In this document: piece by piece, positions 41,017 through 51,330 of the stretch
How positions within the stretch are numbered: the stretch's first letter is position 1
Layout: every line of letters begins with the position of its first letter
NCBI GenBank assembly: GCA_011911785.1
Contig: GCA_011911785.1_4084.1
Reading direction: 5' to 3' (one strand)
From: a phage
DNA: 64,000 nt
The notes under the pieces: generated by a model
Database searches by the model: none
What the model saw: only the letters and a program-made list of their open reading frames with translations
What the model was told of the DNA's origin: nothing
Position numbers and translations under genes: made by a program

Positions 41017-41044
41017 TATCTTAAATTAAATGAGGAATAACCTA

Positions 41045-42172
41045 ATGTCCGAGAAAGAAATCAATCCAAAAAAAGCAACTACCAAAACTTCTAAGCGTAC
41101 TACGACCAAAACCAAAGGTAATACTTTTGATGCGAGTGATATTTTCGACCAACAGTCTAAGACGTTACCAGTACTGAAAGATACAAAAGGTAACACTATG
41201 TCTTTAACTGTTCAGAACATTAACACCATTGGAACAACTGCTGGTGCAGGTGTCGGACGACTGGCTGATGAAATCATGTCAAAAGTGAACGTCACTGATG
41301 ACAATACTGAATTTGGTAAATCAATTACCACAATTTTATCACTAACCCGTGCTGTTGATATTGACAGTCTACAAGATGATAAATCAATTGTAGGTTGGGT
41401 CAAAAAACTCTTTGTCAATGCAAAACAGAAAGTTGGTGATCAGTACAAGAATAGTAAAGAGCAGATTGATGAAATCATGAACACACTCCAGGTTGGTATC
41501 AATCGCCAACATAGTGAATGTGAGTGGTTGGATACTGCTTACAATGAGAATAAAGCCTATCTATTTGAATTACGCGATACGCTGGTTGAATTGGAACAAG
41601 TTACAAAAACTCAAGATGCTAAACTGGAAGAAATGCAAGCGAACCCTGATGTGGATTCTTTCGCAATCCAAGAGCAGAAGATGATTTGTGAAGCATTGTC
41701 TAAACAGGAAGATAAGATTCGCCGTCTTATCATGATGTGTGAGCTTAGTGGCCCTCGTCTGATGAGTATGAAGAAAGTGAATCTAAACACTGTATCTAAA
41801 TTTGAAGATCTGAAATCTGTTGTCATCCCTGCATGGAAATCACAACTAGCAGAACAATTGATTTCTGAACGCCAACGCAAAGATAATGAGTTGGGTAATT
41901 TGATTGATAATGAAACTAACCGTTTACTTGAAGTGAACTCCAAAATGGTAGCAACTAATATGTTAGATGCTGCTAAAGCTAATAACCGTGGTATTGTGGA
42001 TATTAAAACATTGCGTAACGTACACAAAACAATGATCGATAGCATCGAAGCAGTACTGATTGAAGAGAAGAAAGGTAAGGAAGAACGTGAACGTGCTAAA
42101 CATGAAATTGCACAGTTGTCCTACGAACTTGAAGAAACTCTTCGCGAAATTGCTGACAAAGCTAACAAGTAA
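41045..42172 (+). CDS. hypothetical coiled-coil protein (375 aa)
   Basis: ATG 41045 with GAGGAA RBS; largely alpha-helical/coiled-coil composition. Confidence 0.55.
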   Translation: MSEKEINPKKATTKTSKRTTTKTKGNTFDASDIFDQQSKTLPVLKDTKGNTMSLTVQNINTIGTTAGAGVGRLADEIMSKVNVTDDNTEFGKSITTILSLTRAVDIDSLQDDKSIVGWVKKLFVNAKQKVGDQYKNSKEQIDEIMNTLQVGINRQHSECEWLDTAYNENKAYLFELRDTLVELEQVTKTQDAKLEEMQANPDVDSFAIQEQKMICEALSKQEDKIRRLIMMCELSGPRLMSMKKVNLNTVSKFEDLKSVVIPAWKSQLAEQLISERQRKDNELGNLIDNETNRLLEVNSKMVATNMLDAAKANNRGIVDIKTLRNVHKTMIDSIEAVLIEEKKGKEERERAKHEIAQLSYELEETLREIADKANK

Positions 42173-42175
42173 TAG

Positions 42176-42212
42176 TTGACATATAAATGTGCCCATTGTA
42201 TAATGGGCACAT
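42176..42212 (+). promoter_or_regulatory. consensus sigma70 promoter with -10 at centre of a palindrome
   Basis: TTGACA at 42176-81, TATAAT at 42199-204; palindrome ATGTGCCCATT-GTAT-AATGGGCACAT (42187-42212). Confidence 0.6.
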
Positions 42213-42240
42213 ATTTTATTAATTATCTAAGGATAATATG

Positions 42241-42939
42241 ATGGCAGATAAAGTTACACACTATGCAGTTGATATTGAATCTTTCGGAACTCCAGAACGT
42301 AGTGGTTATGATATTACCATTCCAAATTACGCAATTGTTTTAGTTCCAACTAACCCAATGAAAGATATCTCACGTTATGCATATGTTAAACTACCATTCC
42401 AAAAACAAATTGATGCTGGTCTTAAAGTTGATGCAGGTTCAATGAACTTTTGGATGAATATGTGTCAAAATGATCATAAAGGTGCATATGAAGAAGTAGT
42501 TAGTACACTCACGTTGACAGAACCAGAAATTATTTCCGGTAGTCAAAACAATTTGTATAAAACAAAAAATGTACTTGATTTGTGGAATGCACTTCGTTAT
42601 GATCTTAATGGAAATGAGAACAATATTGAAATTTGGGGTAATGGCTGTCACTTCGATTGTAGTATTCTTCAAGCAAACCATCGTAAAATGTTTGGTGTGG
42701 GCGAATTGTGGAAATACAATGCACCACAGAATGCCCGAAGTGTTAAGAATCGCCTAACTGAAGATGAAAAATTTGACATGGATTCCATTGTTGATGTACA
42801 ATTGAAAAAGTTTGTGGAGATGGTTGCTGATCATGGTCTTTATGGTCTAGAACTTCACCACCCATTATTCGATGCAGCACGTGAAGCTATCCAGGTTTCA
42901 TATTGCTTAAATGCAATCAACGAACGCGGAAACTATTAA
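42241..42939 (+). CDS. dexA: DEDDh 3'-5' exonuclease (T4 DexA-like)
   Basis: Exo I VDIESFG, Exo II GCHFDCSIL, Exo III HHPLFDAAREA; about 232 aa, similar to T4 DexA. Confidence 0.7.
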   Translation: MADKVTHYAVDIESFGTPERSGYDITIPNYAIVLVPTNPMKDISRYAYVKLPFQKQIDAGLKVDAGSMNFWMNMCQNDHKGAYEEVVSTLTLTEPEIISGSQNNLYKTKNVLDLWNALRYDLNGNENNIEIWGNGCHFDCSILQANHRKMFGVGELWKYNAPQNARSVKNRLTEDEKFDMDSIVDVQLKKFVEMVADHGLYGLELHHPLFDAAREAIQVSYCLNAINERGNY

Positions 42940-42949
42940 AGGTAACACA

Positions 42950-44047
42950 ATGAACTTAGCAATTCTTCTAATACCAAGTTTGATAGTTGTTCTAATCATG
43001 AAGTTCAAATACCATACTGCCATAACAACAAAGGAATTGCTAATTCATACTGGAATTTGCTTTCTTGCAGCGGTGTTGGTATTGGGAACATCATACTTGA
43101 TAAACTACAGCCAACTTCGTGATGTTGAAATTCTAAATGGTCAGGTTACAGAGAAATACAGCCAACGTGAGAACTGCACATCACAATCAAGTTCTTGTAA
43201 ACACTATACTTGGCATGAGCGTTGCTGGACTACCTATGATTCTAAAGGTCGCTCACAACGTGAATGTGAATCTTATAAGGTATTCGACTATCCGTATGAG
43301 ATTGATTGGTACGTTAAAAGCACTGTTGGTAAGTTTGAGATTGAAAGGGTCAATAGACAAGGAACACAAACTCCACCACGCTGGCAAGAAGTGAAAATTG
43401 GTGATTATGCAGCAGCAGAAAACACATACATAAATTATCTATTTGCAGATAAACACTCATTATTCAGTACTGAAGATTTGATTTCTATGTATGATAAAGA
43501 ATATCTGGAATCTTTACCTGAATATCCAAGTATTAGTGATTATTATAAAACACACCACGTTATTAATAAAACTGATTACGATGTGAGTGGGTATGATGAA
43601 TATTTACGTGAAGTGTTAAAAACATTAGGTGCACAAAAGCAAGTAAACATTCAAGTACTAGTATATGATTATCATGACGTGAATTTTGTTGATGCAGTAA
43701 CCTCAATCTGGCGTGGTGGCAAGAAGAACGATGTGATTATGTTCTTTGGTATCAGTAATGATGGTGTCGTTAAATCATTCAATAGTACGTCATTCGCTAA
43801 AGGTATGAATAATGAAGAATTGCATTCTAAAATGCGAATGGATGCGTTAAATGAAGTATTAACACTTGACTTACTTAAAGTTCAGGTTCATAATATACAG
43901 ACTAAGTTTGAACGTCTGTCGAATAAAGAGTTTGAATACATGGCAGTTAAAATGGAACCACGAAAAGATGTTATGATTGCTGCATCTTTGATTCTCATTG
44001 TACTGTCGATTGTTGTTGGTCTTTATATGAAGGAAAATAATGTATGA
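42950..44047 (+). CDS. membrane protein with N- and C-terminal TM helices and Cys-rich middle (365 aa)
   Basis: ATG 42950; hydrophobic N-terminus and C-terminal IAASLILIVLSIVVGLY. Confidence 0.5.
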   Translation: MNLAILLIPSLIVVLIMKFKYHTAITTKELLIHTGICFLAAVLVLGTSYLINYSQLRDVEILNGQVTEKYSQRENCTSQSSSCKHYTWHERCWTTYDSKGRSQRECESYKVFDYPYEIDWYVKSTVGKFEIERVNRQGTQTPPRWQEVKIGDYAAAENTYINYLFADKHSLFSTEDLISMYDKEYLESLPEYPSISDYYKTHHVINKTDYDVSGYDEYLREVLKTLGAQKQVNIQVLVYDYHDVNFVDAVTSIWRGGKKNDVIMFFGISNDGVVKSFNSTSFAKGMNNEELHSKMRMDALNEVLTLDLLKVQVHNIQTKFERLSNKEFEYMAVKMEPRKDVMIAASLILIVLSIVVGLYMKENNV

Positions 44048-44598
44048 ATAAGCCTCTGATTTTGTTGGTTGGTGTGTTGGTGATTTTTGTTATTGGTGTG
44101 TTTGCAACTGTAAGTATGTATAGTTCAGCACATGATAGTGCAGTGAATTTTGAAGGTAATATTAAAAAGTACTACGATGCATCTGAAAGTCAACTGAGCA
44201 GTTATACACTAACTATTCAAGAAAAGGTTCAAGTATCGGACAAATATAAGGATGCATTGAAAGAGACAATCGAAGCGTACTTTAAGGGACGTGAAGGAGT
44301 TGATCAGAAATTTGTAATGTCACAGATTCAACAACAAGTTCCAAATCTTGATCCTAAGATTTATCAAGAGTTGATGGTTACAATTGATGCAGGGCGTGAG
44401 AAGTTCAATAACTTGCAGAAAATGAAAATTGAACAATGTACTGATTATGAGAAATTCCGTAAAGGTTTCTGGAACTCAAAAATCATCGATTCTAATACAT
44501 TCCCAAGTAAAGATATTGAACATTTGTGTACTGTTGTTTCTGATACTCGCACTAAGAAAGCAATGGAAACTGGTATTCAGGAAGTAATTAAATTGTAA
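44044..44598 (+). CDS. membrane-anchored protein (184 aa)
   Basis: ORF track; N-terminal TM helix; ATGA overlap. Confidence 0.5.
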   Translation: MNKPLILLVGVLVIFVIGVFATVSMYSSAHDSAVNFEGNIKKYYDASESQLSSYTLTIQEKVQVSDKYKDALKETIEAYFKGREGVDQKFVMSQIQQQVPNLDPKIYQELMVTIDAGREKFNNLQKMKIEQCTDYEKFRKGFWNSKIIDSNTFPSKDIEHLCTVVSDTRTKKAMETGIQEVIKL

Positions 44599-44604
44599 GT
44601 ATTT

Positions 44605-44633
44605 GGGGAGTACATTATTGTACTCCCTTTTTA
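44605..44633 (+). terminator. intrinsic terminator
   Basis: GGGAGTACA-TTAT-TGTACTCCC hairpin followed by TTTTT. Confidence 0.7.
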
Positions 44634-45747: not shown

Positions 45748-46101
45748 ATGTTGATTTACTTATGTGTGCTTTTGGTTTCATTGGTTGTAGCAGTATTAGT
45801 ACTGAAAACTATTTCAACTATTCGTTCTAAAATTGATAAACATCAAGAAAATTCTGTTATCGATTTAGTTATGGATTTTCCTAAAATCAGTGCAGCCGTT
45901 GTTTTTGTTGTTATGTTATTTGGAACATACTGCGTAAAAGGCTACCTCTATGGTATGTATGATTGTAGCGTTCGCTCATATTCACAAGGTGTCGAAACTG
46001 ACTATAGCTGGTACTATGGTAAGTGTCGTTTTAAAAATGAGCATGGTATTTGGGTAGATTTTGATAAACTACGCGGAACACCATCAGGTGATGAAGAATA
46101 A
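45748..46101 (+). CDS. small membrane protein (117 aa)
   Basis: ORF track; GGAG RBS; N-terminal TM helix. Confidence 0.5.
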   Translation: MLIYLCVLLVSLVVAVLVLKTISTIRSKIDKHQENSVIDLVMDFPKISAAVVFVVMLFGTYCVKGYLYGMYDCSVRSYSQGVETDYSWYYGKCRFKNEHGIWVDFDKLRGTPSGDEE

Positions 46102-46595
46102 TGTTTGAATTTCCTGATGAACAACCAAAAAACTACATTGACTGTACTGAAGATGGATACACGCATATCAATATCTACAGTAAAGGGAAAACTAAGCTAG
46201 GGAGAGATTTATCTAATTTTTCTCCCCATAGCTTTACACTAGAACCATATGGATGGTTTCCTTCGGTTGAGTCTTTTTATTTCTGGTTCCTCACTGGACA
46301 ACAGCATGAAGAACTTAGAAAGGTATCAGGAGCCGCAGCGAAAGCCGCTGCAAACAAATATATGCATGACCGTATAGAGATGACACCTGAGCGATTAAAT
46401 GTAATCCAGGATGCGATATGTGCTAAAATAATGCAGAATCCTGAACTTGCTGAACGATTGCGTAAAAGTACTCTGAAGTTTGAGCATTATTATTTGTATG
46501 GTGGTAAGATTATTGATGTTAGTGATGACCACCGTTGGTTTGTTCAGACCTTTGAGGATATCAGAACAGTACTGAAGGAGATGAATAATGGATAA
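46101..46595 (+). CDS. hypothetical protein, possible NADAR (YbiA-like) domain
   Basis: C-terminal AKIMQNPELAERLRKST resembles the NADAR motif AKF.QNP.L...LL.T; 164 aa. Confidence 0.35.
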   Translation: MFEFPDEQPKNYIDCTEDGYTHINIYSKGKTKLGRDLSNFSPHSFTLEPYGWFPSVESFYFWFLTGQQHEELRKVSGAAAKAAANKYMHDRIEMTPERLNVIQDAICAKIMQNPELAERLRKSTLKFEHYYLYGGKIIDVSDDHRWFVQTFEDIRTVLKEMNNG

Positions 46596-46863
46596 AGTGA
46601 AAATTTGTTGTCTTGAATGTGAGATGTTTGTCACTCCGTCTGATACAATGTTGACAATAGAGGAACAAGTCTTTCCATTAAGAGGTGGCTATATAAAATT
46701 ACCAACACCATTTTATAGTACATCTTGTTCAATATGTGGTAATGAACTTGTTCTTCATGAGTTGAATCACGTTAATATTATGGTTGTAAATGCAATTAGT
46801 TCGTATGCAAAAGAATTGGTTAGAAATGACAGTTCATTTGCACATTTATGGGGTTTCAACTGA
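46588..46863 (+). CDS. zinc-ribbon protein (two CxxC pairs), paralogue of next gene
   Basis: CCLECE ... CSICGNE; GAAGGAG RBS. Confidence 0.5.
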   Translation: MDKVKICCLECEMFVTPSDTMLTIEEQVFPLRGGYIKLPTPFYSTSCSICGNELVLHELNHVNIMVVNAISSYAKELVRNDSSFAHLWGFN

Positions 46864-46864
46864 T

Positions 46865-47137
46865 ATGAATCATTCAAGAACTTGTTGGATATGTTACAAT
46901 AAGGATGTAGATCATACTCTTGAACTTGAATATATGGAGATGAACTATGCAACAGACGTAAGATCATTTTCTGCTGGTCGTGTTATAATAAAAACACCAC
47001 AATATCAGTGTTTGTGTTCAGTGTGTGGTGGGAATGGTGTATATCGCAATGAGGTTCAAATGGTAAATGATGCTATTGAGCTTTATTTTGGACAATATGT
47101 TTTGGATTTATATAAAAATGAACAAACTAACATTTGA
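46865..47137 (+). CDS. zinc-ribbon protein (two CxxC pairs), paralogue of previous gene
   Basis: CWICYNK ... CSVCGGNG; first ATG after previous stop. Confidence 0.5.
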   Translation: MNHSRTCWICYNKDVDHTLELEYMEMNYATDVRSFSAGRVIIKTPQYQCLCSVCGGNGVYRNEVQMVNDAIELYFGQYVLDLYKNEQTNI

Positions 47138-47362: not shown

Positions 47363-47391
47363 TTGACAATATTCGTCATTCCAACTATAAT
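47363..47391 (+). promoter_or_regulatory. consensus sigma70 promoter (TTGACA-N17-TATAAT)
   Basis: TTGACA at 47363-68, TATAAT at 47386-91. Confidence 0.55.
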
Positions 47392-50518: not shown

Positions 50519-50933
50519 CCTGTTGAATATTGATATCACTAAACTAAAAATTACCGATTGTGGTATGTGTGTCAATGATAAACGTAAGATTGATTATGCT
50601 ATACTTACTGATGGCAATAAATCTCTTTGGTATGATAAATCTGTAGGAATTCAATTTAGACATAGTTCTAGTACTGAAAAGTATTCAGAGACATTAGATT
50701 ACATAAGTAATGGTAGTATTATCTATGTAAAATATTCAGAATCTGGAAAAATTACAAATACCATTACATTCAATGAAAAGAAGTACTCTGAAGAAGAATT
50801 CTTTATGGTTAGTACTTTGTATGATTTTGGGTGTATCAGGTACTGTGATTATGTTAAAACATTGGACATTTCCAATAAGATCTATTCAATACTTGAGCAA
50901 TATGAAAAGGAGATTGTAGATGACAGTAAGTAA
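50508..50933 (+). CDS. EE-x-FQ-x-SL motif family protein (member 4, FM variant)
   Basis: SEEEFFMVSTLYDF motif; GGAG RBS. Confidence 0.5.
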   Translation: MISDLLNIDITKLKITDCGMCVNDKRKIDYAILTDGNKSLWYDKSVGIQFRHSSSTEKYSETLDYISNGSIIYVKYSESGKITNTITFNEKKYSEEEFFMVSTLYDFGCIRYCDYVKTLDISNKIYSILEQYEKEIVDDSK

Positions 50934-51330
50934 ATGTTACATTATCATTCGTGAAGACTTAGATATGCCAGTTGGGAAGCTTGCTGCTCAGGCGGGTCAT
51001 GCGGTTGATTCTATCTGGTCCACGATTACCGTTGCTGGTACATCAATTCGTGGTTGTAATGCTGTTGGTGAGAACCCAAGAGATGAAGATGAAAAGATCC
51101 TGAACGATTTCAGTACTTGGGTACAGGACGGTCGTCGCAAGATTATCTTAAAGGCTAAATCTGAAGAACAGATGCTTAATCTATTCGATAAAGTGAAAGC
51201 TGAAGGATTCACTGCAACTAAGATTCATGATTATGGATTCAACCATTTTGATGGTCTAACATTAACTGGATTCGTTGTGTTCCCGTGCACTGACGAAGTT
51301 AAAGCATTGAAAAGGGTAAGATTATGGTAG
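50920..51330 (+). CDS. peptidyl-tRNA hydrolase, PTH2 family
   Basis: KCYIIIREDLDMPVGKLAAQAGHAV matches the PTH2 signature (K.V.VVR.DL.M..GK.AAQ..HA); C-terminal block KIILKAKSEEQMLNL...TGFVVFP; AAGGAG RBS. Confidence 0.7.
   Translation: MTVSKCYIIIREDLDMPVGKLAAQAGHAVDSIWSTITVAGTSIRGCNAVGENPRDEDEKILNDFSTWVQDGRRKIILKAKSEEQMLNLFDKVKAEGFTATKIHDYGFNHFDGLTLTGFVVFPCTDEVKALKRVRLW

Follow-up and report, generated by a model that had tools for sequence, protein, structure and literature searches.

The NADAR protein AdfN (anti-DarT factor NADAR, gp30.3) of phage T4 is a DNA ADP-ribosylglycohydrolase that defeats DarTG1; in AdfN-type NADARs a His replaces a Glu (PMC11825919). Two further phage NADARs that counter DarTG1, AdfN-Bas60 and AdfN-Bas32, were acquired independently. 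All NADARs assayed so far release ADP-ribose (ADPr) from guanine of DNA or RNA, and for some cytidine-ADPr is a substrate as well (PMC11125620, PMC11833690). Here we analyzed one gene in a 64,000-nucleotide stretch of phage DNA (contig GCA_011911785.1_4084.1 of assembly GCA_011911785.1), hereafter referred to as the window. The product of this gene, 164 amino acids long, truly has the NADAR fold, though in a divergent form. Its homology to AdfN makes it a probable ADP-ribosyl N-glycohydrolase with a role in counter-defence.

The ADP-ribose-binding site of NADARs has been described in detail. The distal ribose is bound by a Glu residue, E43 in the P. nicotianae enzyme (PnNADAR), E88 in the E. 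coli C7 NADAR (EcC7) and E36 in AdfN (PMC11543638, PMC11825919). A second distal-ribose residue, located in the last strand, is Glu in YbiA, Asp in the DarT1-linked BC4488 NADARs and His in phage gp30.3 (PMC11543638, PMC11125620). The phosphates are held by a Lys seven residues past the Glu (PnK50, EcC7 K95, AdfN K43), which EcC7 NADAR cannot do without; K75 and R79 of PnNADAR shield the pyrophosphate; and K115 of EcC7 is required in vivo against DarT1, a contact with DNA having been suggested (PMC11543638). AdfN needs the C-terminal helix to be fully active, and loss of this helix lowers the activity of the RB69 AdfN allele (PMC11825919).

The window protein has a divergent NADAR fold

The window shares 98.6% identity with Escherichia phage A4, a 355-kb Asteriusvirus (jumbo myovirus) of the 121Q/PBECO4 group and a relative of Klebsiella phage RaK2. 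The gene of interest was defined by open reading frame (ORF) analysis of the window as an ATG-started frame of 164 codons and a stop. Its counterpart in phage A4, A4_101, is annotated as ‘hypothetical protein’.

Single-sequence searches were almost blind. A Pfam scan of the window protein revealed no family even at E ≤ 10, a PDB search with the same sequence gave no match, and the sole NCBIfam match, to the YbiA model TIGR02464, was below threshold (E 0.01, 16.1 bits versus a cut-off of 73.7). Every more sensitive test converged on NADAR. When a profile built from 17 homologues was compared with the whole PDB, three chains were returned at E < 10, and all of them are NADARs: YbiA (2b3w, 9e-4), PnNADAR (8bau, 1.4e-3) and the G. 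lovleyi NADAR (8bat, 0.43). A deeper profile of 66 sequences improved the match to 8bau to 4.8e-5. Altogether, the PDB profile searches returned essentially NADARs only.

Alignment comparison with hhalign matched the family to a 58-sequence gp30.3/AdfN alignment over 139 columns, essentially the full domain (98.0%, E 1.8e-13), and to a YbiA-family alignment over the N-terminal two-thirds, residues 21–124 (93.2%, E 2.9e-7). The accepted NADAR relationship between AdfN and YbiA, used as a positive control, gave 97.9% and E 4.5e-13. The window protein and T4 gp30.3 were assigned to the same PHROG, phrog_652 (E 5.1e-43 and 9.2e-51, respectively); YbiA was assigned to phrog_1017 and matched phrog_652 weakly. 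Two independent profiles, of the AdfN family (E 1.2e-3) and the YbiA family (E 4.7e-5), matched the NADAR gene alone among the 365 six-frame ORFs of the window, and searches of the window with three profiles revealed no second NADAR or paralogue. PADLOC had no match for the window protein, nor for T4 AdfN.

The AlphaFold2 (AF2) model of the protein was obtained with a predicted local distance difference test (pLDDT) score of 88.8 and a predicted template modelling (pTM) score of 0.82. It has the YbiA-like alpha+beta fold, in which a helical core is flanked by two small beta-sheets. Helices were modelled at residues 96–111, 114–122 and 145–163 and strands at 126–128 and 130–133; residues 1–10 are disordered and the domain begins at about residue 14.

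A preliminary description of the gene had proposed a possible NADAR domain on the strength of the segment AICAKIMQNPELAERLRKST, which corresponds to residues 105–124. In HMMER and hhalign alignments this segment pairs column for column with the YbiA helix ALRAKFEQHAELRALLLAT and the PnNADAR helix ALKLKFSSDEEMAAKLLA, and the selection of one ORF among 365 by the AdfN and YbiA profiles places the likeness far above chance. The proposal is thus borne out by the PDB profiles, by hhalign against both families, by the PHROG assignment and by the predicted structure. We conclude that the NADAR fold of the window protein is confirmed.

The similarity to YbiA makes it necessary to consider a YbiA-type housekeeping N-glycosidase that destroys reactive intermediates of the riboflavin pathway. 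This is very improbable. The TIGR02464 score is far under the cut-off, the protein has neither YbiA's last-strand Glu nor its D..WG.G motif, and the hhalign match is confined to the N-terminal part given above. The family is nearer to AdfN and overwhelmingly phage-borne, and no riboflavin genes are found near the window gene.

Predicted active site and its conservation

Residue conservation was counted in 166 diverse family members aligned to the family hidden Markov model. For PnNADAR, the numbering offset of 8bau was checked on eight named residues before any equivalence was used. Glu57, the predicted catalytic or distal-ribose-binding residue, is invariant (166/166) and aligns with PnNADAR E43, EcC7 E88 and AdfN-T4 E36. 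His129 is present in 164/166 members, as is the neighboring Tyr130; it aligns with H123 of AdfN-T4 in the sequence ‘KHSIG’ and corresponds to the ‘phage NADAR’ histidine that stands in place of the YbiA-family Glu or the DarG1-family Asp. Lys81, equivalent to PnK75 and EcC7 K115, is also invariant (166/166), and K109 in the core helices is nearly so (159/166).

The first beta-strand and the ‘LSNF’ NADAR motif, DGYTHINIYSKGKTKLGRDLSNF (residues 18–40), align with TIINFYSTSDDYGDFSNF of YbiA and weakly with LEISSKSKTTLGVDLSAF of the G. lovleyi DarG1-type NADAR. This segment carries a set of near-invariant residues specific to the subfamily: D18, G19, H22, N24, Y26, S27, K28, T31, G34 and R35. The C-terminal alpha-helix (residues 145–163) is intact and is the counterpart of the helix missing in the RB69 AdfN allele.

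The diphosphate site departs from the canonical pattern at two places. Leu64 occupies the position of the phosphate-binding Lys, and A84-N85 replace G-R (PnG78, PnR79) of the canonical ‘AKKLGR’ ADP-ribose-binding motif. Conservation of the NADAR catalytic residues is evident for E57 and H129; the Lys at the Glu+7 position is lacking. The window protein is a His-type NADAR whose diphosphate site has been remodelled, and this remodelling is a trait of the family.

To assess selection, the gene was compared with four Asteriusvirus/Alcyoneusvirus orthologues. Synonymous sites were saturated (proportion of synonymous differences, pS, 0.79–0.85), while the proportion of nonsynonymous differences (pN) was 0.12–0.18. 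Where measurable, the ratio of nonsynonymous to synonymous substitution rates (dN/dS) was 0.02–0.07. The gene is under strong purifying selection. Leu64 is kept in all five compared sequences and A84-N85-K86 in four of the five, RaK2 having E85. Because dN/dS is low and L64 is kept throughout, the altered diphosphate site is not a result of decay.

These data bear on another explanation, a catalytically weakened NADAR-fold binder that sequesters an ADP-ribosylated target or inhibits a host defence protein stoichiometrically. The loss of both canonical diphosphate-binding residues (L64 for Lys, N85 for Arg) would suit such a protein, and a precedent, a phage NADAR inhibiting Retron-Eco1 without enzymatic activity (Carabias et al. 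2024), is cited in PMC11825919. We nevertheless regard a binder as improbable. Glu57, His129, H22, N24, K81 and Y130 are essentially invariant, a pattern that suits an active site better; the dN/dS values argue in the same direction; and the Lys is absent from most of the 2,058-cluster family, which points to a family trait rather than to decay.

Proposed function

From homology we infer catalysis, the substrate and an anti-DarT role, and we favor an ADP-ribosyl N-glycohydrolase acting in counter-defence as the probable function. The protein would bind an ADP-ribosylated nucleobase by its ADP-ribose moiety and cut the N-glycosidic bond between ribose and base. Glu57 and His129 would lie on either side of the distal ribose, and the diphosphate or the nucleic acid would be kept in place by Lys81 together with the conserved basic residues K28, R35 and R73. 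In this way ADP-ribose placed by host DarT1-like toxins on guanine of replicating phage single-stranded DNA would be removed, allowing replication to proceed.

Several observations weigh against this function. The gathering scores of both relevant Pfam families are missed: among the 17 close homologues three touch PF08719 (NADAR), with a best E of 0.035, and two reach E 0.012 with PF08010 (Phage_30_3), which leaves the window protein unmatched. The Glu+7 position, Leu64 in the window protein, is Lys in just 27/166 family members (Ser in 43, Leu in 28, Gly in 18), and mutation of this residue in AdfN-T4, K43A, weakens the enzyme (PMC11825919). The PnR79 position is N85, followed by Lys86, in the window protein, and Arg or Lys in 117/166 members. 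A search of the family alignment for basic positions co-varying with the missing Glu+7 Lys found none. No clear equivalent of YbiA's D..WG.G motif can be seen, the window protein reading HYYLYGGKIID where YbiA has its last-strand Glu and this motif, and the hhalign match to YbiA ends before this region. No ADP-ribosyltransferase, NAD-salvage or DarT gene was found nearby, as judged by Pfam within ~5 kb and by the annotation of phage A4, whose genome was examined for partner genes over ~55 kb. No assayed member of the subfamily was found in the literature searched, and AdfN-Bas60, the ‘divergent’ phage NADAR that was tested, turned out to be an ordinary PF08719 NADAR outside the subfamily. Finally, Iyer et al. 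argued, on genomic context, that soluble derivatives of ADP-ribose rather than macromolecular adducts are what most phage NADARs act on (PMC9503650).

Subfamily spread and domain partners

An exhaustive profile search returned 2,058 representative clusters (50% identity) at E ≤ 1e-3, of which 1,628 were retained at E ≤ 1e-10. By tblastn, homologues were present in 533 phage records. Among the ~60 of these records that were listed, the annotation is nearly always ‘hypothetical’, and a few matches overlap other annotations such as ‘virion structural protein’. The subfamily is overwhelmingly phage-borne and occurs in Asteriusvirus, RaK2-like jumbo phages, Kuttervirus/Ackermannviridae, jumbo phages of Erwinia, Xanthomonas and Ralstonia, and phages of Vibrio and Pseudomonas.

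About 63% of the best 150 representatives are multidomain, at more than 200 amino acids. Partner domains were counted in the 94 multidomain relatives from this set. The most frequent was DUF4326 (31/94), followed by YAcAr SLOG, often also called DprA-like (21/94), DUF488-N3a (5/94) and Macro (3/94). Canonical PF08719 NADAR, YpsA, Metallophos and Rv2179c-like exoribonuclease domains were found once each (1/94). These partners belong to the network of NAD/ADP-ribose domains that the Aravind group has described.

The 1415-amino-acid protein P0102 combines a canonical PF08719 NADAR (residues 10–143), a divergent subfamily domain (548–699) and DUF4326 in one polypeptide, which suggests that the two NADAR types are not redundant. 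The subfamily domain of this protein scores 27 bits against PF08010, for which the cut-off is 36. In another protein, P0130, the subfamily domain is fused to Metallophos. A calcineurin-like Metallophos gene also lies two genes from distant subfamily homologues in two unrelated contigs (L005, 9379–10479 and 11327–12608; L008, 11626–12411). The first of these is a 952-kb metagenomic contig with SocA_Panacea and cREC_REC genes nearby. A cREC domain, SocA_Panacea, nucleoside hydrolase and deoxyribosyltransferase are likewise encoded around distant homologues.

Such contexts bring in the main alternative, an active NADAR that works on a soluble, low-molecular-weight derivative of ADP-ribose instead of ADP-ribosylated DNA. 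Candidate substrates are cyclic ADPR-type immune signals, ADPr-1''-phosphate and by-products of NAD-dependent RNA repair. The protein would then perform one step of a degradation pathway completed in other genomes by DUF4326, SLOG, Macro or Metallophos domains. The high share of multidomain relatives and the identity of their partners (DUF4326, YAcAr SLOG, Macro, Metallophos, NADAR), the Metallophos genes in two unrelated contigs and the nearby cREC, nucleoside hydrolase and deoxyribosyltransferase all speak for this possibility, as does the remodelled diphosphate site (L64, N85), which would allow a different ligand geometry. Such a role has been proposed for phage NADARs by Iyer et al. (PMC9503650, PMC7824862). 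On the other hand, all assayed NADARs, three phage ones included, act on base-linked ADP-ribose in nucleic acids, and cleavage of a soluble immune signal has been shown for no NADAR. The window protein is a stand-alone domain, and no partner domains were detected within ~5 kb of its gene. The invariant K81 is equivalent to EcC7 K115, with its in vivo role against DarT1 and suggested DNA contact. We therefore consider a soluble substrate possible but rather unlikely.

The proposed N-glycohydrolase may also differ from AdfN in its target. The large, mostly viral clade to which the window protein belongs is invisible to Pfam, and it seems to do without the canonical Lys/Arg diphosphate clamp and to have gained its own invariant N-terminal His22/Asn24/Lys28/Arg35 motif. 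Tentatively, and with more doubt than attaches to the glycohydrolase function itself, we suggest that this clade acts on an ADP-ribose adduct other than the guanine-N2-ADPr DNA of AdfN and DarG1. Such an adduct may be one on another base or on RNA, or an immune signal that is soluble and derived from NAD. If so, the clade would have a counter-defence specificity of a new kind, and in many members the same polypeptide would also provide DUF4326, SLOG or Macro steps.

Genomic neighborhood

Coordinates of the features discussed are collected in Table 1. The NADAR gene is a stand-alone domain gene placed among small genes with no assigned function, within a compact array of genes that share one direction. 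The ATG of the NADAR gene overlaps the stop of the 117-amino-acid ORF upstream (TAATG, 46099–46103), and its final 8 nucleotides overlap the ATG of the next ORF at 46588. The upstream ORF codes for two hydrophobic, transmembrane-like segments, and its arrangement with the NADAR gene is also kept in E9.1 and vB_Ec-M-J. A WWE-type ADP-ribose reader encoded next door was considered and rejected: the homologue of the upstream gene in ph0011 is annotated as ‘WWE domain-containing protein’, but Pfam shows no such domain at E ≤ 1. Directly downstream are two small Cys-rich ORFs (CxxC...CxxC) that belong to no Pfam family and form a pair of weak paralogues (28% identity over 57 amino acids, E 1e-6, in a single comparison).

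Table 1. Features of the window: the NADAR gene and its parts, followed by neighboring genes and putative signals
Feature	Position	Strand	Basis or remark
Coding sequence, divergent His-type NADAR-fold protein, 164 amino acids	46101..46595	+	matches A4_101 of Escherichia phage A4
First beta-strand and ‘LSNF’ NADAR motif, residues 18–40	46152..46220	+	conservation (n = 166); YbiA alignment
Glu57 codon GAG, predicted catalytic or distal-ribose-binding Glu	46269..46271	+	invariant in family; alignments
Leu64 codon CTC, canonical phosphate-binding Lys position (PnK50, EcC7 K95, AdfN K43)	46290..46292	+	hhalign, HMMER
Residues 81–85, K-A-A-A-N	46341..46355	+	conservation (n = 166); 8bau equivalences
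NADAR core helices, residues 105–124, AICAKIMQNPELAERLRKST	46413..46472	+	YbiA and PnNADAR alignments; model helices 96–111, 114–122
H-Y-Y, residues 129–131, last beta-sheet	46485..46493	+	strands 126–128, 130–133; AdfN alignment
C-terminal alpha-helix, intact, residues 145–163	46533..46589	+	AF2 model; AdfN C-terminus alignment
TelA-family protein	41030..42172	+	E 5e-38
Sigma-70-like promoter, perfect 12/12 match	42176..42204		TTGACA-17-TATAAT
Palindrome, 11-bp stem	42187..42212		terminator-scoring on both strands
Rv2179c-like 3'-5' exoribonuclease	42238..42939	+	PF16473, E 1.1e-8
378-amino-acid protein	42911..44047	+	hydrophobic N- and C-terminal segments
LemA	44044..44598	+	annotation in ph0011
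Terminator-like hairpin	44605..44628		
117-amino-acid ORF	45748..46101	+	stop overlaps NADAR gene ATG
Cys-rich small ORF	46588..46863	+	CxxC...CxxC
Cys-rich small ORF	46865..47137	+	CxxC...CxxC
Sigma-70-like promoter, perfect match	47363..47391		
PTH2-type peptidyl-tRNA hydrolase	50920..51330	+	PF01981, E 2.5e-18

Farther upstream are replication and nucleotide-metabolism genes as well as the TelA, exoribonuclease and LemA-like genes. The TelA, 378-amino-acid and LemA genes form an envelope or stress-type cluster directly upstream of the small-gene array. The Rv2179c-like exoribonuclease gene lies ~3 kb upstream of the NADAR gene; in one of the 94 multidomain relatives the subfamily domain is fused to an exoribonuclease domain of this type, weakly hinting that the two are functionally linked. 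No DUF4326, SLOG, Macro or Metallophos partner was detected within ~5 kb of the window gene. A gene for a PTH2-type peptidyl-tRNA hydrolase is located on the downstream side.

A perfect sigma-70-like promoter sequence stands just upstream of the exoribonuclease gene and is embedded in a palindrome. A possible seven-gene unit is bracketed by the terminator-like hairpin and a second perfect sigma-70-like promoter. Since promoter matches in the scan as a whole were not above chance (45 found versus 42 expected), the operon structure is only suggestive.

Implications

Part of this picture is already known: PHROGs places the subfamily together with gp30.3, and the frequent occurrence of NADARs in jumbo phages has been noted in published surveys. 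Given the unusual active site and the size of the unannotated clade, there is room for a distinct substrate specificity. Since standard Pfam/NCBIfam annotation misses the subfamily, counter-defence surveys based on PF08719 and PF08010 undercount NADARs. The analysis provides a testable function for a gene called ‘hypothetical’, including in therapeutic-candidate jumbo coliphages and in Kuttervirus, Erwinia and Vibrio phages. If the protein is active, the AdfN-type anti-DarTG1 strategy, or a broader one directed against ADP-ribosylation, would extend beyond T-even phages to Asteriusvirus/RaK2 jumbo phages and many others, and the Lys held to be essential in DarG1 would prove dispensable for a NADAR.

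Comparison with known systems

The YbiA family (2B3W; PF08719; TIGR02464) shares with the window protein the motifs N-x-Y-S, G-x-(L/F)-S-N-F, S-x-E and A-K-(F/I)-x-Q-(N/H). Unlike YbiA, the window protein falls under the PF08719 and TIGR02464 thresholds, lacks the last-strand Glu, D..WG.G and the Glu+7 Lys, and is found in a viral, not a housekeeping, context.

With the DarG1/BC4488 NADAR antitoxins (E. coli C7 NADAR; G. lovleyi 8BAT) the window protein shares the catalytic Glu and Lys81, and with the G. lovleyi NADAR also a weak local similarity, ‘SKxKTxLGxDLSxF’ (E 0.43). In contrast to these antitoxins, it has His129 for the last-strand Asp (EcC7 D171), no equivalent of Lys95 and no N-terminal basic extension, and its gene is a phage orphan with no adjacent DarT rather than a toxin-antitoxin partner. 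The His in place of Asp, the missing extension and the lack of a DarT neighbor rule out a DarG1/BC4488 antitoxin.

Like the window protein, AdfN-Bas60 and AdfN-Bas32 are stand-alone NADAR-fold proteins of large lytic coliphages, and these two reverse DarT1 experimentally. AdfN-Bas60 (bas60_0111) was tried as a candidate subfamily member and rejected, being a canonical Glu-type PF08719 NADAR (E 3.5e-36) that the subfamily profile does not match. In Bas60 (Escherichia phage PaulScherrer) a macrodomain protein, a phosphoribosyltransferase and a HAD-like protein are encoded by an adjacent trio of genes (L017, 10489–12704), apparently another NAD/ADP-ribose module.

The nearest characterised relative is T4 gp30.3/AdfN (PF08010), and by sequence comparison the window protein appears to be a remote member of the AdfN/gp30.3 branch. 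The differences from AdfN are considerable. Identity is ~21% at profile level, with the PF08010 gathering score missed; the near-invariant AdfN Lys43 is replaced by Leu64 and the G-R of the ADPr-binding motif by A-N. The subfamily has its own invariant D-G-x-x-H-I-N-x-Y-S-K-x-x-T-x-L-G-R sequence and H-Y-Y with an extra beta-hairpin, and is frequently fused to DUF4326, SLOG or Macro. At the same time, the two proteins share phrog_652 and align by hhalign across the whole domain. Both are single domains of ~150–165 amino acids free of the DarG1-type N-terminal extension, both are carried by large lytic myoviruses of enterobacteria, and both have the catalytic Glu (E57, E36 in AdfN), the last-strand His (H129, H123 in AdfN) and the C-terminal helix.

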